From Candidatus Bilamarchaeum sp. (lineage in GTDB: Archaea > Micrarchaeota > Micrarchaeia > Anstonellales > Bilamarchaeaceae), in assembly GCA_035455205.1 (NCBI GenBank), contig DATIFM010000036.1:12152-76151 (forward strand): a stretch of 64,000 nucleotides of DNA, read 5' to 3'. Below, piece by piece: positions 1,743 through 63,955 of this stretch (positions are counted from its first letter, which is position 1; each line of letters starts with the position of its first letter). The notes under the pieces are model-generated. The model was not told where the DNA came from. It did no database searches and worked only from the letters and a program-made list of their open reading frames with translations. A program made the translations under genes and the position numbers.

Positions 1743-2456
1743 ATGAAGTTCCTTTACGACGCCCCGGCACTGATGCACAAGGGGGCGATAATAGTAGGCG
1801 ACACTCACTTCGGGATGGAAGAGAAGCTGAGGCGCAGGGGAATATACGACGAGAACTTCAGCGAGCGGCTTTACGGGAAGCTCAAGTCGCTGGTTCTCGA
1901 GCACAAGGCATCGCAGGTCATCTTCCTCGGCGACGTGAAGGAGGAAGTGACCATGCTCGACCGCAGGACCGCGGACGTGCTCTCGAAATTGTCCATGCTC
2001 TGCAAGGTCACCGTGGTGCGCGGGAACCATGACGGCGGGATTGAAGCGCGGGGCGCCCTCGAAGTCGCGCCTGCAGAGGGGATTGTTTATGAGGGCCTCG
2101 GGCTCGTGCACGGGCACTCGTGGCCGGGCGATGCGCTCGTGCAGTGCGAGTACCTTGTCATGGGGCACCAGCATCCGATGATAGCGATAGAGGACGCGTT
2201 CGGGAGGACGCACCGCGAGCCGGCATGGTTCATCGCTCCGTGCAACCCGGAGGGCATGGCGCAAAGGTACGGAAAGTTCAACATGGACATCAGGCTCGTT
2301 TTAATGCCAGCGTTCAACCCGCTGGTCGGCTCCACGCTGAATTACGACGAAAAAGAGCATTTGGGCCCGATTCTTAACAACAAATTATTTAAACTAGACG
2401 ATGCTATAGTATTCCGTCTGGACGGAACTTGTCTGGGAAAATTCGGAAACATTTGA
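1743..2456 (+). CDS. calcineurin-like metallophosphoesterase (ICC/MJ0037-type, COG1407-like)
   Basis: Phosphoesterase motifs GDTHFG, GDV, GNHDG and GHQHP occur in the correct order. Starts 2 nt after the purD stop. Confidence 0.75.
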   Translation: MKFLYDAPALMHKGAIIVGDTHFGMEEKLRRRGIYDENFSERLYGKLKSLVLEHKASQVIFLGDVKEEVTMLDRRTADVLSKLSMLCKVTVVRGNHDGGIEARGALEVAPAEGIVYEGLGLVHGHSWPGDALVQCEYLVMGHQHPMIAIEDAFGRTHREPAWFIAPCNPEGMAQRYGKFNMDIRLVLMPAFNPLVGSTLNYDEKEHLGPILNNKLFKLDDAIVFRLDGTCLGKFGNI

Positions 2457-4257: not shown

Positions 4258-4536
4258 ATGGTCAAAATGTCAAGGGGAGCCTTCGCTCGCAGGACGAGGA
4301 AGCTTGCAGGAAAGACGGGGATTACGGTCGCCCAGCTCGTGAAGACGTTCAGCGTCGGCGACAAGGTCATAATCAGCCCGAAGGCGAAATTCGAGGGGCT
4401 TCCGCACCTCCGGTACGCGAGCAGGCACGGGATAATCAGGGAGAAGAGGGGCAAGAGCTACGTGGTCGAGGTCGGGGACTTCAACAAGAGGAAGAATGTC
4501 ATTGTCGGCCCGGTCCACCTCAAGCTCGCCTCATAA
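4258..4536 (+). CDS. rpl21e: ribosomal protein eL21
   Basis: MVKMSRGAFARRTRKLAGK...GDKVIISPK...HLRYASRHGII is typical L21e. The track ORF starts at a TTG at 4243; the ATG at 4258 or 4267 is more likely. Confidence 0.85.
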   Translation: MVKMSRGAFARRTRKLAGKTGITVAQLVKTFSVGDKVIISPKAKFEGLPHLRYASRHGIIREKRGKSYVVEVGDFNKRKNVIVGPVHLKLAS

Positions 4537-5441: not shown

Positions 5442-6659
5442 ATGCGCAATGCGATACTCGCCCTCCTGATAATAGGCATCTGCAGCGCCGGCTACGAGGC
5501 GGCATACGATTCCAACCTCTCGGCAGTGATGGTCAAGGTCTACGGCCAGATGGACATAAACGGCTCGTACGAAGATTTCCTCTCGAGGCACACCCTCGTC
5601 GTGCTCGGAAGCGACATGGACCTCGGCGAGAGGGCTCTCCTCGAGACCGTGAGGGCCGAGAACGGCTGGTTCTCGAAAGCGAGGCAGAGCAACGACAGCA
5701 ACGGCACGCTCCCGGGCATTGAGGCAGGGGACTATTCGCTCGTGGTGCTCATCGGAGGCCCGGCCCAGAACAACATAACGAAAGTCGCGAACAAAAGCGC
5801 GTGGTTCAACGAGACCTACAAGGTCGAAGGCGGATTCTTCGTCGAGACCGGCAGGCTCGGGAACACGCTAGTGCTTTCAATCTCAAGCAGGAAGGGGTAC
5901 GACGAGAGGCCCAACGCAGGGGTAGCATTGTCGCCCCTCAACGCATTCATGCCCAAGGAGTTCGTTCCCCTCGCGGCAACCGGAATCTCCGTCTTCGCCC
6001 TTGCGATTATCAGCCTCGTGAGGACCGTCTTCGAGTTCAAGGCCCTCGACATAGGGCGCAAGGGGAAGAAAGTCGGTGAGGGGGCGGCGTATTATCGGGG
6101 CATCAACCTGACCGAGGCCGGGGCGGTCGTCGGCGCGTCAGTTATCCTCGGCGTGTCGATAAGCTGGCAGTATTTCGGAACCGACTTTTTGAAGTGGATA
6201 GCGATAAACAGCATCATCTGCCTATTTGCGGCCATAATGCACGAGCTGACCCACCGCGCTTTCGCATACGCGTTCAAGCTGAAGATAGAATACCGGTTCT
6301 GGCCGGCAGGCTCGGTGCTGACCCTCATCAGCTCGTACCTCGGGAACGCATTCTCGATTCAGGGGTTCCTGCTCGAGGACATAGAGCCGGACGTGCCCCG
6401 CTGGAAGGTAGGGCTGATGAAGCTTTCCGCGCCGCTTGTCAGCACGGCCATCATGGTTATTTTCGCATTGCTCAACTACGAGTCGCCCTCTCTGATCTAC
6501 CAGACCATCTACTCGACGAGCGGCCTGTGGGCGATGGCCGAGATACTCCCGTTCGGGGGATTGGATGGCAAGGACATAAAGGACTGGAGCCACACGGTGT
6601 GGTTTTTGGCCTTTACAGTCATAAGCGGCTGCTACGTGGCCGTCACGTTCCTGCTCTGA
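5442..6659 (+). CDS. polytopic membrane metalloprotease, site-2-protease (M50)-like, with an N-terminal extracytoplasmic domain
   Basis: HELTH (HExxH) lies in a hydrophobic segment, followed later by AEILPFGGLDGKD (the LDG motif of S2P-type enzymes). Signal/TM at the N-terminus, then about 170 aa carrying NxS/T sequons, then multiple TMs. Confidence 0.5.
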   Translation: MRNAILALLIIGICSAGYEAAYDSNLSAVMVKVYGQMDINGSYEDFLSRHTLVVLGSDMDLGERALLETVRAENGWFSKARQSNDSNGTLPGIEAGDYSLVVLIGGPAQNNITKVANKSAWFNETYKVEGGFFVETGRLGNTLVLSISSRKGYDERPNAGVALSPLNAFMPKEFVPLAATGISVFALAIISLVRTVFEFKALDIGRKGKKVGEGAAYYRGINLTEAGAVVGASVILGVSISWQYFGTDFLKWIAINSIICLFAAIMHELTHRAFAYAFKLKIEYRFWPAGSVLTLISSYLGNAFSIQGFLLEDIEPDVPRWKVGLMKLSAPLVSTAIMVIFALLNYESPSLIYQTIYSTSGLWAMAEILPFGGLDGKDIKDWSHTVWFLAFTVISGCYVAVTFLL

Positions 6660-8571: not shown

Positions 8572-9726
8572 TTATCTAACACGTAAATTCGCCATTTTCT
8601 TGGCAACCATCACCGCGCCGAGCTCGCCGAAGCCCCGCTCGCGGATGACTTCGGCGTATTTCGACCGGCTTTCTGCGTCGAAGACGAATCCCGCGTTGGT
8701 GAGGTTCTCCACCCTCTTCGAGACGCGCTCGTGGCACTGGAGGAGGAACTCCGGACACTTCTTTCCCTCTTCGGAGAACCGCTTGCCGAGCTCGAGCCAG
8801 TATTTCATGCTCCCGACGTCGGCCCTGCGCTCGCTTTCAGTGTGACCCTTGTACGCGTCATAGAGGTCCATGAGGCTGAGGGAGAAGCGTTCCCTGAACT
8901 CTCCCAGCGCCTTCCGTTCCGTGAGGAGCGGGCCCCTTCCCCCGAGCACGAAATCGGTGACCGCTTTAGCGGTTTCCTCGTCGTGAGGATTCTGCAGGAG
9001 GTAGTATATCCAATAGACCCTCGCCGGGTGCTCGTAGTTGCTCTCGTGCCAGTCCCCGCTTATGAAAGGCATTCCTGGAAACAGCACTCTCCGGATTTGG
9101 GCCAGGTGCGGGTTGAAAGATTCGTGGTGGATCGCCGCATTCGATATGATGATGTCAAAGCTGTCATCGTCGAAATCCGCGAGCTTATCTACGCTTCCAT
9201 GAACCAGCCGGAGATTGAGCGAGCCTTCATAGGACGTCCCGCGAATGAATGATCTTATCCGCCCTTCCGCGGTTTCGAGCCTCTTTGCCGAGGGCTCGAG
9301 AAGAACGAGATTGCGGGTTTGGGCCTCTGAATCCCGATCCGTATCCAAAAATGCAAGTGAGGTGTCGCCAGCCCCTGCGCCTATGTCAAGGACACTCGGC
9401 CCGTCGAATCTTTCAATCAGCACCTCTGAAGCATACTGGCCTATTTTCGCATTCATCAGGGCGTTCGTGTCGGCCAGGCCCGCCTTCTCCGACGCTTCGG
9501 CTATCATGTGGTTCATCGAACCGTCTGTATCGGCCCATTCGACGCTGAATGCCTTTTTCGACTCGGAAACCAGCCAGTCGATGTTTTCGGGCGCGATTGT
9601 TATACCCCAGTTCGGATAGGAATAGGCATGCGTCCTCAAGAGGCTTCCAAGGCGCACCGGCGCCCAGTCCAATAAGCCCTGCGCGTCGGCATTCAGCTGC
9701 TCTATCTCAGAAATCTTCGTAAGCAA
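8572..9726 (-). CDS. class I SAM-dependent methyltransferase with long N- and C-terminal extensions
   Basis: VLDIGAGAGDTS (motif I) and IIISNAAIHH (post-II/III region). At 384 aa it is much longer than a minimal methyltransferase core. Confidence 0.7.
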   Translation of the reverse strand: MLTKISEIEQLNADAQGLLDWAPVRLGSLLRTHAYSYPNWGITIAPENIDWLVSESKKAFSVEWADTDGSMNHMIAEASEKAGLADTNALMNAKIGQYASEVLIERFDGPSVLDIGAGAGDTSLAFLDTDRDSEAQTRNLVLLEPSAKRLETAEGRIRSFIRGTSYEGSLNLRLVHGSVDKLADFDDDSFDIIISNAAIHHESFNPHLAQIRRVLFPGMPFISGDWHESNYEHPARVYWIYYLLQNPHDEETAKAVTDFVLGGRGPLLTERKALGEFRERFSLSLMDLYDAYKGHTESERRADVGSMKYWLELGKRFSEEGKKCPEFLLQCHERVSKRVENLTNAGFVFDAESRSKYAEVIRERGFGELGAVMVAKKMANLRVR

Positions 9727-9793
9727 TATCCCACCCGCAATGAGATTGTATCGAAGCGAATTAAAACCTAGTTTTTCAGGAATTCACACAATT

Positions 9794-9812
9794 GCAAACC
9801 CGGAGGGTTTGC
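9794..9812. terminator. conserved GC hairpin, copy 1 (GCAAACCC-GGA-GGGTTTGC), just downstream of the tRNA 3' end
   Basis: Perfect 8-bp stem with a 3-nt loop. On the minus strand it follows the TTTTT run (9821-9825) that trails the tRNA. Confidence 0.45.
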
Positions 9813-9825
9813 CAAATGACAAAAA

Positions 9826-10060
9826 TGGGCTCACCCAGGATCGAACTGGGGATCTTCGCTGTTCCGAACTTTTGGGAAAAGTTCGATCAAAACCGGTTGC
9901 TGATTTGCGCCGGAGGCGCAAATGTCTCAGACCGAAACCCGGAAGGGTTTCGCAACATCCCGGTTTTTGTCAAACTTTTTTCCAAAAAGTTTGTAAGAGC
10001 GACGTCTTAACCATTGCCGGCAATTGAACAGGGCAGTTCAAGGCACTCGACTATGAGCCC
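9826..10060 (-). tRNA. tRNA-Val (anticodon UAC) interrupted by two introns
   Basis: Minus strand reads GGGCTCA TA GTCG AGT[31 nt]TGGTTA AGAC G TCGCT CTTACA[about 130 nt]C AGCGA AGATC CCCAG TTCGATC CTGGG TGAGCCC A. Perfect 7-bp acceptor stem, 5-bp anticodon stem, canonical T-arm, A73, no encoded CCA. Approximate exons: 10060-10045, 10013-9992 and 9861-9826. Confidence 0.75.
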
Positions 10061-10072
10061 GGAATACATTAA

Positions 10073-10606
10073 CTAGCCCAAGTATGTTTTTATTACCTTT
10101 TTGCAGCTCCCGCAGAAGGCCGTGCCCTTGAAATCCACGTCCGCAACCGAGTTCGAGTACACCATGACGCATTTTTTGTCCTCGCAGTGCGGAAGGCCGA
10201 GCGTATGGCCTATCTCGTGTATGGCCTCCTTGAGGAGGCGCTCCTTGAAGAGCGCGCGGGCCTTCTCAGGGTCCTTGAGGGGCCCGTAGAACCTCGGGTC
10301 GAGCCTTGCCATGGAGACGATGCATGAGCGCCTTCCGGCCAGCCCGAAGACGAAATTGAGGTTCCCTGAAAAGATGTCCTCGCGGGTGATGAACAGGGTT
10401 ATGGCATCTTCGGAGCCGGCGATGCGCGCAAGCTCCCGGAGCAGGATGTCGGCGTGGTACTGCTTCCGGTCGCCCCTATATGAGCGCGTCAATGGGAAAT
10501 CAATCAGCTCGGTCCGGACCTGGTCCTTGAACTCCTTGGATATGCGGTCAGCGAACGCTCCGAATCCCGGGACCGTACGGCCCAGGAGAACGATGGAGAT
10601 TTTCAT
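10073..10606 (-). CDS. amzA: archaemetzincin
   Basis: HEIGHTLGLPHCEDKKCVM...CGSC matches the archaemetzincin signature HExxHxxGxxHCxxxxCxM...CxxC. The start is more likely MKISIVLLG at 10606 than the track start at 10663. Confidence 0.9.
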   Translation of the reverse strand: MKISIVLLGRTVPGFGAFADRISKEFKDQVRTELIDFPLTRSYRGDRKQYHADILLRELARIAGSEDAITLFITREDIFSGNLNFVFGLAGRRSCIVSMARLDPRFYGPLKDPEKARALFKERLLKEAIHEIGHTLGLPHCEDKKCVMVYSNSVADVDFKGTAFCGSCKKVIKTYLG

Positions 10607-10675
10607 AAAAAGGATAGGAAGAGAAAAATAAAGAATACCACATTTTGTTGAAACTCTTGGCATGAGCCAAAAGTT

Positions 10676-19702: not shown

Positions 19703-19723
19703 GCAAACCCCGGAGGGGTTTGC
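19703..19723. terminator. conserved GC hairpin, copy 2 (GCAAACCCC-GGA-GGGGTTTGC) between convergent genes
   Basis: Perfect 9-bp stem with a 3-nt loop, followed by AAAC. Lies in the 42-nt gap between the HEAT gene stop (19692) and the htpX stop (19735). Confidence 0.5.
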
Positions 19724-22030: not shown

Positions 22031-22701
22031 CTGGCCGCCTTGATTATGCCCCTGAGCTCGCTTTCGCTCCTGAAGCCGGAATACGTCTTCTCGTTCACGA
22101 CGACGCTCGGATACGAGGTGATGTTGTACTGCCTCTCGAGCGACTCGGCGACCGGGCTCTCGAGCTCGCCGTCGAACGAGAACAGCTTGACCTCCACGCC
22201 TTCGGCCCTGAGCGAGTCGCGGGCCTTCAAAATCTCCGTTCCCTGCTCGCGGCACCGCTCGCAGTTCTTGTTCGAGTAGAAGTGGATGAGGAGGACGCTA
22301 TTGTCGCCGCAGAGCTGCCGGGCCTTCTTCGAAAGGAGGTAGGACTCGGCCTCGAGGACGAAGTATTTCCTCTTCAAGTCGTCATCGTAGATGTTCCTCT
22401 TCTCCTCGAGGAACGTGAGCTTGTAGCCGACGCGCTCGATTTCGGCGTCGATGCTGTCGAGCTGGTCCTCGTAGAGCGGGCAGGACGACTCGTTCCCCTC
22501 CATGAGGAGGATGAGCTGGGCCGATGACAGCCTGTCCGAGAGGTTTGAAACGTCGTCCGACACGCCCTGCAGGTTGGAGGTGTCGATGAGGTACCCGATG
22601 TAGACCCCGATGACGAATATCATGAGGGACATGAAGAACGCGATTATGTAGACCGGTGTGCTGAGCTTCCTATCCAATGCATCACCAGGAATACGGCTCA
22701 C
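22027..22701 (-). CDS. membrane-anchored thioredoxin-fold protein (CxxC)
   Basis: N-terminal TM (VYIIAFFMSLMIFVIGVYIGYL), a coiled middle region, and a C-terminal Trx-like HFYSNKNCERCREQ...ITSYPSVVVNEKTY. Confidence 0.6.
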   Translation of the reverse strand: MSRIPGDALDRKLSTPVYIIAFFMSLMIFVIGVYIGYLIDTSNLQGVSDDVSNLSDRLSSAQLILLMEGNESSCPLYEDQLDSIDAEIERVGYKLTFLEEKRNIYDDDLKRKYFVLEAESYLLSKKARQLCGDNSVLLIHFYSNKNCERCREQGTEILKARDSLRAEGVEVKLFSFDGELESPVAESLERQYNITSYPSVVVNEKTYSGFRSESELRGIIKAAR

Positions 22702-23872
22702 GCTTCAGCTCCTTGAAAAGGAAGAGCAGGTTGTACCCGACCATCAGATACCAGTAGAATACCATGAACGTGAGGATATAGCGCGCCTTGACCTTTTCGC
22801 CGCGGAAGCTCTTTATCGCGAGATACACGAAATAAGTCGATGTCAGGATGACGAACGCACCCACGAACGTCATGAACGATACGTCCATCCCGAAGGCATC
22901 GAACCAGATGTAGTTGACATAGTATGGGGTAGTCGCTATCGAATAGACCATGATGCCAAGGAGAACGAAGAACGCCGTGAGCGCGACGAAGTTGAGCGGA
23001 ACGAAGTACATTCCGAAGTCGCCGTACTCGGGGCGTATCAGCGACCGGTACTGCCAGTAGTTCCGGATTCCGCCCCTCTGCCAGCGCACCCTCTGCTTTA
23101 GGAGGTCCTGCATGTTGTCCGGGGGCTCGGTATACACTTCGGCAGAGAGCGAGCTCCTTATCCTGAAGTTGTGCGACTGGATGCGGAGCGCTATCTCCTG
23201 GTCCTCGACGAGGTTGCGCTCGTCGAACGGGCCTATCTTCTCGAAGACCGACGCCCGGAACATGCTGAAGGGGCCCGGCGTCACGGGCACGCTGTCTATG
23301 AACGAGAGGAGCTTCCTAGAGAAGAGTATCATCATGTACTCGACCCGCTGGAGCTCCTTGAGCCACGAGCCGCTCGCGCGGATTTTCACCGCCGGAGTCG
23401 CGGCCATCACCTCGGGGTCGTCGAAATAGGGTATCAGCTCCTTGAGCGTCCCGGGAGTGAGGTAAGAGTCCGCGTCCATCGTGGCCACGAACTCCCCCTT
23501 TGCCTTCTTTATCCCGAAATTGAGCGCGGCGCCCTTCCCGCCGTTCTTCTTGGTGAATGCTTTCACCGGCGAATCCGGGCCTTCGAAGGATTTCGCGATC
23601 TTGTACGTGTCGTCAGTCGACCCGTCGTCCACGACTATCACTTCGAGCCGGTCCGGGGGGTAATCCACCCCCTTAATAGTCCGGAGGCAGTCCGCGAGGT
23701 ACCTGCCTTCGTTGTATGCGGGAAGGATGATGGAGACCAGGGGCGTCTTGCCGCTCCACTTGGGCCGCTCGAGGTATTCGTCGCGGTGCTTGAGGAAAAT
23801 GAGGATGAAGACGCTTACAGTGAAGAGGGATATGAATGCGATTGCATAGTTGATGAGCAGGACCACGTCCAT
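22682..23872 (-). CDS. processive family-2 glycosyltransferase (membrane-integrated synthase type)
   Basis: VSIILPAYNEG, VVDDGSTD, MDADS (DxD) and QRVRWQRG (QxxRW), flanked by TM segments on both sides. Confidence 0.85.
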   Translation of the reverse strand: MDVVLLINYAIAFISLFTVSVFILIFLKHRDEYLERPKWSGKTPLVSIILPAYNEGRYLADCLRTIKGVDYPPDRLEVIVVDDGSTDDTYKIAKSFEGPDSPVKAFTKKNGGKGAALNFGIKKAKGEFVATMDADSYLTPGTLKELIPYFDDPEVMAATPAVKIRASGSWLKELQRVEYMMILFSRKLLSFIDSVPVTPGPFSMFRASVFEKIGPFDERNLVEDQEIALRIQSHNFRIRSSLSAEVYTEPPDNMQDLLKQRVRWQRGGIRNYWQYRSLIRPEYGDFGMYFVPLNFVALTAFFVLLGIMVYSIATTPYYVNYIWFDAFGMDVSFMTFVGAFVILTSTYFVYLAIKSFRGEKVKARYILTFMVFYWYLMVGYNLLFLFKELKREPYSW

Positions 23873-45652: not shown

Positions 45653-45671
45653 GCCAACCCGAAGGGTTGGC
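45653..45671. terminator. conserved GC hairpin, copy 3 (GCCAACCC-GAA-GGGTTGGC) between convergent genes
   Basis: Perfect 8-bp stem with a 3-nt loop, followed by AAAC. Lies in the 44-nt gap between the stops at 45630 (+) and 45675 (-). Confidence 0.5.
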
Positions 45672-57096: not shown

Positions 57097-57157
57097 TCAA
57101 GGAAAAAGGGGATAAAAGAAATAAAAAGGGAAGTTAGAAAGAAACCGCAGGTTTCTT

Positions 57158-58237
57158 TCAGCCGAGCATCTCAAGGTCGTGCGAGAACGCCGGGACCGCA
57201 GCCTCCTCCTCGGAGACCGAAGTGCCTGCGACGGACGCGCCCTTCACGCCGGTTACGATGGCGACTATTTCGAGCTTGCCCTCGTAGTTCTGCATGATTC
57301 TCGCGCCCCACTTGACGTTCGCCTCGGCGTCCATCTTCTCGGTCACCCACTCGCCTGCCTTGATGGCATCGCCGAGGGTGAGGTCGGAGCCGCCCGTGAT
57401 GTGGATGAGCGCGCCCTTTGCGCCTTCGAAGTCGACGTCGAGGAGCCTGTTCTTTATGACGCCCTCGGAAGCCGCCTTGACCTTGTCGTTGCCCTTGCCT
57501 TCGCCGACCGCGATGAACCCGACTCCTCCGCCTTCCATGATTGCGCGGACATCCGCGAAGTCGATGTTGATGAGCGAGGGCTGGGTGATTGTCCAGACGA
57601 GGCCGCTTATCGCCCTCGAGAGGATTTCATCAGCAACCGCGAACGCCTCGGCCATCGGGAGGTTCGGGACGAGCTGGACGAGCCTGTTGTTGTCCAGGAT
57701 GATGACAGAGTCGCAGAATTTCTTGAGCGCCTTGATGCCTTCATCGGCCCTCTTCTTCCTCGCGCGCTCGAGAGCGAACGGGTAGGTGACCATCGCAACC
57801 ACGATAGCTCCCTGCTCCTTGGCAATCTGTGCCACGATTGGAGCGGCGCCGCCGCCGGTTCCGCCGCCCATGCCCGCGCAGACGAACACGAGGTGAGCGC
57901 CTTCGAGCTCCCTCTCGACAAGGGGCCTGTCCACTTCGCACGACTTGGCACCGACGTCCGGGTAGCCGCCCGCGCCGAGTCCCTTCGTGACGGACTTGCC
58001 GATGAGCACTTTCTTCGCCCTTTCGTGGACGATGTTCAGGTGCTGCTTGTCGGTGTTGATGGCAACGAGCTCCGTGCCCTTCACGCCGGACTTTATCAGC
58101 CTGTTGATGGTGTTGTTTCCAGCGCCGCCGACGCCGACGGTAACTATCTTGATGCTCTCAGAGCTGAGCGCATCCGAGCTGGACTGCTTTTCCTGGGGGG
58201 TGTTTTCTCCTACAACCGATCTTACTAAGTCATCCAT
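57158..58237 (-). CDS. ftsZ: cell division protein FtsZ
   Basis: GVGGAGNNTINRL and the tubulin signature GMGGGTGGGAAP. Start at MDDLVRS (58237) is preceded by GGTGA; the track start at 58333 would swallow a TTTAAAT box. Confidence 0.95.
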   Translation of the reverse strand: MDDLVRSVVGENTPQEKQSSSDALSSESIKIVTVGVGGAGNNTINRLIKSGVKGTELVAINTDKQHLNIVHERAKKVLIGKSVTKGLGAGGYPDVGAKSCEVDRPLVERELEGAHLVFVCAGMGGGTGGGAAPIVAQIAKEQGAIVVAMVTYPFALERARKKRADEGIKALKKFCDSVIILDNNRLVQLVPNLPMAEAFAVADEILSRAISGLVWTITQPSLINIDFADVRAIMEGGGVGFIAVGEGKGNDKVKAASEGVIKNRLLDVDFEGAKGALIHITGGSDLTLGDAIKAGEWVTEKMDAEANVKWGARIMQNYEGKLEIVAIVTGVKGASVAGTSVSEEEAAVPAFSHDLEMLG

Positions 58238-63935: not shown

Positions 63936-63955
63936 GCAAGCCCGCCAGGGCTTGC
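63936..63955. terminator. conserved GC hairpin, copy 4 (GCAAGCCC-GCCA-GGGCTTGC) after pyrG
   Basis: Perfect 8-bp stem with a 4-nt loop, beginning 8 nt after the pyrG stop. Confidence 0.45.

Follow-up and report, generated by a model that had tools for sequence, protein, structure and literature searches.

The tRNA-Val(UAC) locus

The window analysed here is a 64-kb (64,000-nt) stretch of contig DATIFM010000036.1 from Candidatus Bilamarchaeum sp., with a G+C content of ~0.59. An archaemetzincin gene (Pfam M54; 10073-10663, minus strand), preceded by a glutamine synthetase gene (glnA) and with methyltransferase and protein kinase genes coming after, is the upstream neighbour of a 235-nt segment at 10060-9826 on the minus strand. 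Named relatives of the archaemetzincin are Micrarchaeota proteins, including a 100% identical one from a 'Candidatus Bilamarchaeum sp.' metagenome-assembled genome (MAG). In this Micrarchaeota (DPANN) archaeon the 235-nt segment is very probably a functional tRNA-Val(UAC) gene carrying two bulge-helix-bulge (BHB) introns, whose transcription and splicing we infer from sequence. The gene consists of three exons and two introns, with candidate signals on either side:

10087..10095, minus strand: TATA-like box TAATAAAAA, rich in A/T, at 27-35 nt before tRNA position 1 and overlapping the final archaemetzincin codons
10046..10060, minus strand: exon 1, 15 nt, with the acceptor 5' strand GGGCTCA, U8 A9, the D-stem 5' strand GTCG, and A14 G15
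10014..10045, minus strand: intron 1, 32 nt, non-canonical, in the D-loop at 15/16, with borders taken from intronless orthologues
9992..10013, minus strand: exon 2, 22 nt, with the remainder of the D-loop UGGUUA, the D-stem 3' strand AGAC, G26, UCGCU, C32 U33, the anticodon U34 A35 C36, and A37
9862..9991, minus strand: intron 2, 130 nt, at the canonical site 37/38
9826..9861, minus strand: exon 3, 36 nt, with C38, AGCGA, the variable loop AGAUC, the T-arm CCCAG UUCGAUC CUGGG, UGAGCCC and the discriminator A73
9821..9825, minus strand: T5 run adjoining the discriminator base

The acceptor strands (GGGCTCA, 10060-10054; TGAGCCC, 9833-9827), the T-arm (CCCAG TTCGATC CTGGG, 9850-9834), the anticodon stem (TCGCT, 10002-9998; AGCGA, 9860-9856) and the D-stem (GTCG/AGAC) could all be placed. 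The acceptor stem, T-arm, anticodon stem and loop CTTACA..C listed in the initial annotation of this locus were thus all present on the minus strand. With 10045-10014 and 9991-9862 removed, the mature D-loop reads AGTGGTTA and the mature anticodon loop CTTACAC, and ARAGORN recognised the 73-nt spliced sequence as tRNA-Val(TAC). The spliced tRNA forms a cloverleaf with a 7-bp acceptor stem, D, anticodon and T arms, and the anticodon at 34-36. On direct reading it keeps U8, A14, G18 G19, U33, G53-C61, the T-loop UUCGAUC and the discriminator A73. CCA is not encoded in the gene.

The A/T-rich box is likely to be the promoter of the tRNA gene, as judged from its position and composition. An equivalent box (GGTAATAAAAA, GGAAATAAAAA or GCGTTAAAAATAG) was found at the same spacing in every orthologue that follows archaemetzincin. 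Similarly, the T5 run is likely to act as an archaeal oligo-T terminator, and runs of T3-T7 occupy the same place in the orthologues.

Standard tools missed the unspliced gene. ARAGORN found no tRNA in the 64-kb window, nor did it do so with introns of up to 200 nt permitted. Rfam returned nothing at gathering thresholds across the window and no tRNA at E<=10 in 9700-10150. With relaxed settings ARAGORN called a spurious tRNA-Leu(cag) with a 160-nt 'intron'. A scan of both strands for a T-arm plus acceptor pointed to a second hidden tRNA at 2218-2331 (plus strand), but this lies inside an ORF of 237 amino acids (aa), has no further tRNA features and was rejected as a chance match. The tRNA-Val(UAC) gene is the only tRNA gene found within the window. 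Missed by ARAGORN and Rfam as it is here, tRNA-Val(UAC) would be wrongly absent from tRNA counts and completeness estimates of DPANN MAGs.

In the initial annotation no open reading frame (ORF) explained the gap. Three ORFs do overlap it: 9740-10027 and 9792-10010 on the plus strand, of 95 and 72 aa, and 9784-9921 on the minus strand. None has a Pfam match, and we rejected a coding explanation of the gap. The two plus-strand ORFs cannot be conserved, because intron content differs among relatives.

Orthologous genes define the splice borders

Orthologues were collected from contigs reached via archaemetzincin homologues and from genome and metagenome scans for the 3' exon, yielding 27 loci (given here by L numbers) from ~19 distinct lineages. 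The tRNA-Val(UAC) gene lies directly 3' of archaemetzincin, with glnA before it, at all loci except L006 and L007. Intronless orthologues occur at L003/4/5, L010, L020/21 and L044. ARAGORN recognised them as tRNA-Val(tac), and the Rfam tRNA model (RF00005; gathering score 29) scored them at 66.8-68.5 bits, with L010/L044 at 68.5. The mature sequence of L010/L044 is GGGCCCATAGTCGAGTGGTTAAGACGTCGCTCTTACACAGCGAAGATCCCCAGTTCGATCCTGGGTGGGCCCA, and the joined window exons match it everywhere except at acceptor pair 5:68, which changes from C-G to U-A. Exon 1 differs only by C5 to U5, exon 2 is identical, and exon 3 differs only by G68 to A68, which compensates U5. Both sides of this pair are altered though 234 nt of gene lie across, and L017 holds the U5.G68 intermediate.

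Because the intronless orthologues match the joined exons, the mature tRNA is 73 nt long, the D-loop intron 32 nt, and the long intron 9991-9862. As position 38 is C, the long intron lies at the canonical site 37/38. The BHB rule, cutting after the second bulge base, gives the same borders as the orthologue comparison. The initial annotation had read the locus as tRNA-Val(UAC) interrupted by two introns, a non-canonical one in the D-loop and a highly structured one of ~130 nt in the anticodon loop, and the orthologues, the compensated 5:68 pair and the relaxed BHB motifs bear this out. Its 74-nt in-silico splice was accepted by ARAGORN as tRNA-Val(TAC), but the intronless orthologues and BHB geometry give 73 nt. 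Two of its four splice borders stand; the D-loop intron moves by one base at its 5' end, and the long intron by one base at its 3' end. For the D-loop intron the span becomes 10045-10014, where ~31 nt at 10044-10014 had been given. For the long intron, the coordinates 9991-9862 and the length of ~130 nt hold, now at canonical 37/38, with the 3' border having been one base off.

Orthologues carry 0, 1 or 2 introns at shared sites, with exons almost identical. A D-loop intron alone is present at L007, L008, L009, L012 and L013, an anticodon-loop intron alone at L001, L006, L011, L015, L016, L017 and L019, and D-loop plus variable-region introns at L045. With 0, 1 or 2 introns, three sites, lengths of 30 to 130 nt and modular insertions, the set offers a natural series for the study of intron gain, loss and enlargement. 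It also shows how far the specificity of the Micrarchaeota endonuclease is stretched.

Splice motifs and predicted folds of the precursor

Relaxed BHB motifs can form at both junctions, a check that the initial annotation had called for. At the 37/38 site, a BHB scan found a 5-bp outer helix (UCGCU/AGCGA) and a central helix of CUUA (9997-9994) with UCGG (9867-9864), in which three of four positions pair, one of them as G.U, and one is a U.C mismatch. The bulges are CA|A (9993-9991) and AA|C (9863-9861), and the inner helix pairs ACUUUU (9990-9985) with AAAAGU (9873-9868) over 6 bp. The resulting cuts, 9992|9991 and 9862|9861, agree with the orthologues; the motif is relaxed, not strict. Its central helix takes in U34 and A35, and in canonical archaeal introns the first two anticodon bases lie within the central helix (PMC4090602). 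The introns of L006, L016, L017 and L019 share this BHB layout, but in them GAGG forms the central helix's 3' strand.

Intron 2 is made up almost entirely of paired elements:

9993-9971, minus strand: 5' hairpin
9967-9960 / 9896-9889, minus strand: 8-bp helix, AAAACCGG with CCGGTTTT, the 5' strand reading C-AAAAA-CCGG
9952-9933, minus strand: inner hairpin, CGAAACCC-GGAA-GGGTTTCG
9923-9903, minus strand: inner hairpin
9885-9865, minus strand: 3' hairpin

The intron alone has a minimum free energy of -58.3 kcal/mol, against -33.2 +/- 4.0 in 200 shuffles (z = -6.2). In the predicted fold and in the RNAalifold consensus with L016 and L019, it extends the anticodon stem as a rod. In this rod the first palindrome's 5' arm is paired to the 3' arm of the final palindrome, followed by GGAAA with UUUCC and AGUUUGA with UCGAACU, before the 8-bp helix (AAAACCGG/CCGGUUUU) and two apical hairpins that close it. 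The ends of the intron are mutual inverted repeats (AAACTTTTT...AAAAAGTTT). Because the terminal palindromes are near-copies of each other, a four-hairpin fold is an equal-energy alternative: in the full precursor the rod and four-hairpin forms reach -73.5 and -73.2 kcal/mol. Only the rod, the splicing-competent form, presents the splice sites. The four near-perfect hairpins reported earlier (9971-9993, 9933-9952, 9903-9923, 9865-9885) exist at those exact coordinates and are in fact perfect, but a rod with two apical hairpins, with which the four-hairpin fold competes, describes the intron better, and the long-range helix given as 9 bp has 8 contiguous pairs.

At the D-loop site, the D-stem strand GUCG (10051-10048) pairs with the 3' end of intron 1, CGGC (10019-10016), as a central helix with 4/4 pairs, one of them G.U; folding without constraints also gives this helix at minimum energy. 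It is accompanied by the bulges AG|U (10047-10045) and AA|U (10015-10013). On the intron side a short GC/GC helix leads to a 6-bp UUGAAC/GUUCAA hairpin, UUGAAC-UGCCCU-GUUCAA at 10041-10024. A contiguous exon-side helix is absent (A9.G18 mismatch) and a strict BHB scan did not list the site; its geometry fits the relaxed hBH / HBh' class of motif. With so scant an exon-side helix, the D-loop site needs a broad-specificity endonuclease.

We also considered a nested intron within intron 2. Scan motifs would excise 9977-9874 (104 nt, strict-looking) or 9964-9887 (78 nt, looser), neither of which exactly yields the 52-nt intron of L017. The sequence here is low-complexity A/U, and across 128 kb (both strands) 221 motifs combine 4/4 central pairs with flanking helices of 4 bp or more; we retain the idea as speculation only.

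A conserved family of long introns with patchy presence

The 130-nt intron is a member of a conserved family specific to tRNA-Val(UAC), as judged from sequence. Its homologues are introns of 110 nt (L016), 111 nt (L019) and 52 nt (L017). Over ~103 aligned positions it shares 87% identity with L016/L019, with an alignment score of 110 against -8 +/- 8 for shuffles, and between L016 and L019 the intron identity is 94%. The 4-fold degenerate sites of archaemetzincin and glnA in these genome pairs reach only 35-46% identity against a chance expectation of 39%, indicating that synonymous sites are saturated. Conservation also takes in loops and linkers (UUGAUC(G/A)AAC, ACAAAAACCGG). Such differences as there are prove largely compensatory: G-C has become A-U in two places, the inner hairpin and the 3' hairpin, A and U tracts are lengthened in pairs, and the RNAalifold consensus contains 3 pairs with double changes.

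The members differ by modules. L017 has the terminal palindromes only, L016/L019 add one inner hairpin, and the window intron adds an extra inner hairpin (9923-9903). From these sequences the family appears to have grown by added hairpin modules, from 52 nt to ~110 nt with a helix-enclosed hairpin, and to 130 nt with the second inner hairpin.

Presence of the intron is patchy. L019 has it and L020 does not, with archaemetzincins 90% identical and 4-fold sites 78% identical. By glnA, the nearest loci to the window are L003 (90%), which is intronless, and L001 (87%), which has an unrelated 36-nt intron. No further copy of the family was found with a covariance model over the window and 18 related loci (159 kb), or by BLAST in the window or related loci. 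The D-loop families described below are equally conserved yet patchy, and the constraint thus concerns the introns of this tRNA generally, not the 130-nt one alone. Candidate causes of the conservation are structural constraint on the precursor of an essential, probably single-copy tRNA, a function of the excised rod, and selfish spread with recombination via near-identical exons.

Between L017 and L019 the archaemetzincin is 88% identical with 4-fold sites at 75%, whilst the adjacent glnA has 4-fold identity of only 40%. This suggests that the archaemetzincin-tRNA segment of the two loci is a tract of local recombination or transfer.

D-loop intron families and further introns of the gene

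D-loop introns of 54-101 nt occupy the same site at L007, L008, L009, L012, L013 and L045. In all seven D-loop introns, the window's included, the predicted 5' cut follows GUCGA(G/C), and the 3' end, which pairs with GUCG, is conserved as (C/G)G(A/G)C-AA|. L012 and L045 share 85% identity in this intron, with 4-fold sites at 0.36.

The L007 intron (6294-6394, 101 nt) equals the L012 intron (4343-4397, 55 nt; flanks 100% identical) plus a 42-nt insert. This insert consists of two perfect hairpins, GTTGCCGC..GCGGCAAC and TTTGACGCT..AGCGTCAAA, flanked by a 4-nt AAAG direct repeat, and looks like a recent insertion of a hairpin cassette within the intron. At L009 (4182-4102, minus strand) and L008 (2884-2962), a D-loop intron of 79-81 nt contains a strong internal BHB that would excise 43 nt, with an outer helix of 7 bp, a central helix of 4 bp and an inner helix of 10 bp in L009. 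This may be one intron nested in another, or else a second site for the endonuclease.

The motif UUUUGGAAAAA(G) forms a hairpin tip both in the long intron family (window 9985-9975) and in type-A D-loop introns (L012 4351-4361), and GGAAAAAG recurs in the L008/L009 intron (L008 ~2932-2942). This recurrence may reflect common descent or a binding motif that the families share, but in low-complexity sequence and with weak statistics. A common origin of the two intron families was scored from the shared motif TTTTGGAAAAA (z ~5 against base shuffles), but homopolymer runs inflate this score and we did not rely on it.

Two further kinds of intron were observed. L045 1761-1932 (assembly GCA_976602305.1) is another two-intron tRNA-Val(UAC) gene, with a 54-nt D-loop intron and a 45-nt variable-region insert whose borders fall within the 8-nt direct repeat GCGAAAGA. 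L001 (2857-2892), L011 and L015 carry a third, unrelated family of anticodon-loop introns of 32-36 nt, ending AGAG(A/C)AAA(A), and have G37 instead of A37. In these introns the 3' bulge seems to have 5 nt in place of 3 nt, leaving the exact 3' cut ambiguous.

Proposed processing and alternative explanations

In the pathway we propose, the gene would be transcribed as one ~235-nt precursor from the A/T-rich box to the T5 run. The archaeal splicing endonuclease would cut it at two BHB sites, and an RtcB-type ligase would join the three exons into the 73-nt tRNA and probably circularise both introns. At the 15/16 site, cleavage would use GUCG and the intron 3' CGGC as the central helix and require a broad-specificity enzyme. 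At 37/38 the motif would form only when the terminal palindromes pair mutually, as in the rod, and not when each folds on itself as in the four-hairpin form. Such an enzyme is an expectation from the phylum. Disrupted tRNAs and the epsilon2 endonuclease were first described in Micrarchaeota, a small-genome DPANN lineage (PMC3239211), which fits the initial annotation's expectation of a small-genome, multi-intron lineage. In ARMAN-2, 56% of tRNA genes are disrupted, and epsilon2 cuts strict and relaxed motifs (PMC3239211, PMC5829648, PMC12397907); by analogy, a broad-specificity splicing enzyme would be expected in the present genome.

Several observations weigh against a functional, spliced gene. 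No endonuclease gene was found in the 64-kb window by phmmer and tblastn with an approximate M. jannaschii EndA query. Neither splice motif is a strict hBHBh': the D-loop motif has almost no exon-side helix, and the 37/38 motif has its U.C mismatch in the central helix. Finally, oligo-T runs within intron 2 (T5 at 9984-9988 and two T4 runs; also 9888-9892 and 9876-9880) match the gene's own T5 terminator. They are conserved in L016/L019 (T6, T5, T5) and might cause premature termination or attenuation by archaeal RNA polymerase, stopping transcription partly early. The T-runs in the long insert would also suit a decaying, silent pseudogene hit by two insertions, with another gene supplying tRNA-Val(UAC), as would the failure of standard tools to call the locus; the tRNA search covered the 64-kb window only. 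We regard this as very improbable. The exons, intact at 73/73 positions and compensated over 235 nt, and the retained promoter-like A/T box and T5 terminator argue strongly against decay. The sole two differences from the intronless orthologues make up the compensatory acceptor pair, both insertions stand at intron sites of relatives and are removable by the BHB rule, and the long insert is itself conserved with compensatory changes.

A functional tRNA-Val(UAC) gene is compatible with the long intron, and perhaps the D-loop intron too, being a selfish, protein-free BHB intron or palindromic mini-element that would spread from genome to genome or site to site, would serve no function itself and would persist only where the host enzyme excises it. 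This we consider rather unlikely. Its patchiness among close relatives (111 nt in L019, none in L020, 52 nt in L017) would suit such an element, as would intron identity of 87-94% between lineages with saturated synonymous sites, a pattern that the D-loop family repeats. The inverted repeats at the ends of intron 2, the AAAG-flanked 42-nt two-hairpin cassette in the otherwise 100% identical intron of L007, and the local recombination suggested by the L017/L019 archaemetzincin-tRNA segment (4-fold 0.75, against 0.40 for glnA) point the same way. Intron transposition is documented in Thermoproteales, according to the citing passage of PMC4033280. Against it, the covariance model (159 kb) and BLAST found no copy elsewhere in the window or in other genes, the exon borders lack a target-site duplication, and the compensatory substitutions and paired indels relative to L016/L019 speak for a long separate evolution under structural constraint, not for recent transfer. 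A miniature inverted-repeat transposable element was rejected on similar grounds: terminal inverted repeats are present, but there is no border duplication and no second copy in the window and 18 related loci, a small part of each genome. A scan of viral contigs gave chance 17-mers only. The 17-mer GTTTTGATCRAACTTTT has 22 matches there, none beyond 17-18 nt, and the pattern is too narrow to include L016/L019.

The initial annotation suggested a stable RNA, and it is also conceivable, though unlikely, that the 130-nt intron functions as one after excision. It would probably be a circle of rod shape with tRNA-Val as its expression vehicle, much as the euryarchaeal tRNA-Trp intron carries a C/D box guide RNA. 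The very stable fold (-58.3 kcal/mol, z = -6.2), the 87% identity to L016/L019 in loops and linkers as well as stems where neutral sites are saturated, and the upkeep of stems by compensatory changes would fit this, and circular tRNA introns are stable in metazoans (PMC4536317). The intron is nevertheless dispensable, since L003, L020, L010 and L044 lack it altogether and L017 lacks its central domain. It matches no Rfam family at E up to 10, and has no proper C (RUGAUGA) / D (CUGA) box pairs and no H/ACA layout. A C/D box small RNA (sRNA) is represented by one CUGA (9929-9926) and the degenerate GAUGUUG and UGAUCGA, with no box pair conserved in L016/L019 and no Rfam match to small nucleolar RNAs or sRNAs. 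With the D-loop family just as conserved, the constraint may be merely that of folding and splicing an essential single-copy tRNA. Group I and group II introns were rejected, with no Rfam match at E<=10 in 9700-10150 and a length of 130 nt too short for either.

A broader proposal, which we make tentatively and hold to be doubtful on balance, is that the introns of this tRNA, which form discrete families (a rod of 52-130 nt at 37/38; at least two at 15/16), do more than fill space. Either they would be rod-like RNAs under selection, probably circular, or protein-free BHB elements that propagate themselves, and they would grow by hairpin cassettes or introns inside introns. The families are 85-95% identical across Micrarchaeota lineages with saturated synonymous sites, and their presence switches among near relatives. 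Such growth is hinted at by the 42-nt cassette of L007, the strong internal BHB of L008/L009 and the weaker one at 9977-9874 of the window.

Hairpins and BHB-like motifs elsewhere in the window

A hairpin scan of the 64-kb window returned 29 rows, ~19 of them distinct by hand count, against ~6 rows for base shuffles. Four perfect hairpins (stems of 8-10 bp) fall inside the 130-nt intron. Other perfect 8-10-bp hairpins, with loops of 3-4 nt, stand just past the 3' ends of genes at 9794-9812, 19703-19723, 45653-45671, 57137-57159 and 63936-63955. The one nearest the tRNA gene is:

9794..9812, minus strand: perfect hairpin GCAAACCC-UCC-GGGUUUGC, 3' of the tRNA, one of the genome's gene-end hairpins

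Several gene-end hairpins have the form GCAAACCC-GGA-GGGTTTGC, and the inner hairpins of intron 2 resemble them. An intron hairpin had been called a copy of this intergenic family; 9933-9952 does resemble the hairpins at 9794 and 19703, without being identical to them.

The top-scoring BHB-like motif of the window lies at 22852-22879 (minus strand), with outer, central and inner helices of 8, 4 and 9 bp and an 'intron' of 26-28 nt. It sits in an uninterrupted family-2 glycosyltransferase ORF (22682-23872) and is probably due to chance, since excision breaks the reading frame.

Comparison with known systems

Thermoproteales and ARMAN-2 are known to have two-intron tRNAs, introns in the D-arm and relaxed motifs (PMC4090602, PMC3239211, PMC12397907). 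A two-intron gene is thus already of a known kind in Micrarchaeota, and what is less expected is an unusually well-conserved, modular family of long introns. If it is true that this conservation reflects function or self-propagation, DPANN archaea would have a new, if small, class of RNAs derived from introns.

The closest parallel is ARMAN-2 (Candidatus Micrarchaeum acidiphilum; Fujishima et al. 2011, PMC3239211; PMC5829648; PMC12397907), which belongs to the same phylum. It shares with the window canonical and non-canonical introns, two introns per gene, relaxed BHBs and genes missed by standard finders. The ARMAN-2 examples, however, have short introns (13 and 25 nt in assays) at 37/38, 53/54 and 59/60, whereas the window has a non-canonical site at 15/16 and a canonical intron of 130 nt. 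That length is at the long end, as archaeal tRNA introns are usually <100 nt (PMC4033280).

In Thermoproteales (Sugahara et al. 2008; Fujishima et al. 2010), according to the passages of PMC4033280 and PMC4090602 that cite this work, there are likewise several BHB introns per gene and non-canonical hBH/HBh' sites, and related introns recur across genomes with rapid gain and loss. The window, by contrast, belongs to another phylum, in a DPANN lineage whose A-U-rich tRNA stems make it probably a mesophile, and its family was seen in one tRNA at one position (window and 18 loci), with no sign of movement between tRNA species.

The euryarchaeal tRNA-Trp intron that contains a C/D guide RNA, as described where PMC4090602 cites it, is also a BHB intron of ~100 nt or more at 37/38 that is more conserved than a spacer. 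By analogy with the tRNA-Trp intron, the long window intron might likewise be releasable as a stable or circular RNA. Unlike the tRNA-Trp intron, the window intron has no C/D or C'/D' boxes and no Rfam match, and is absent from close relatives. By the same analogy from the pathway, both window introns would be expected, after cleavage and RtcB ligation, to share the fate of tRNA intronic circular RNAs (tricRNAs; PMC4536317) and of circularised archaeal introns, and the predicted rod-like fold of the long intron would favour its stability.

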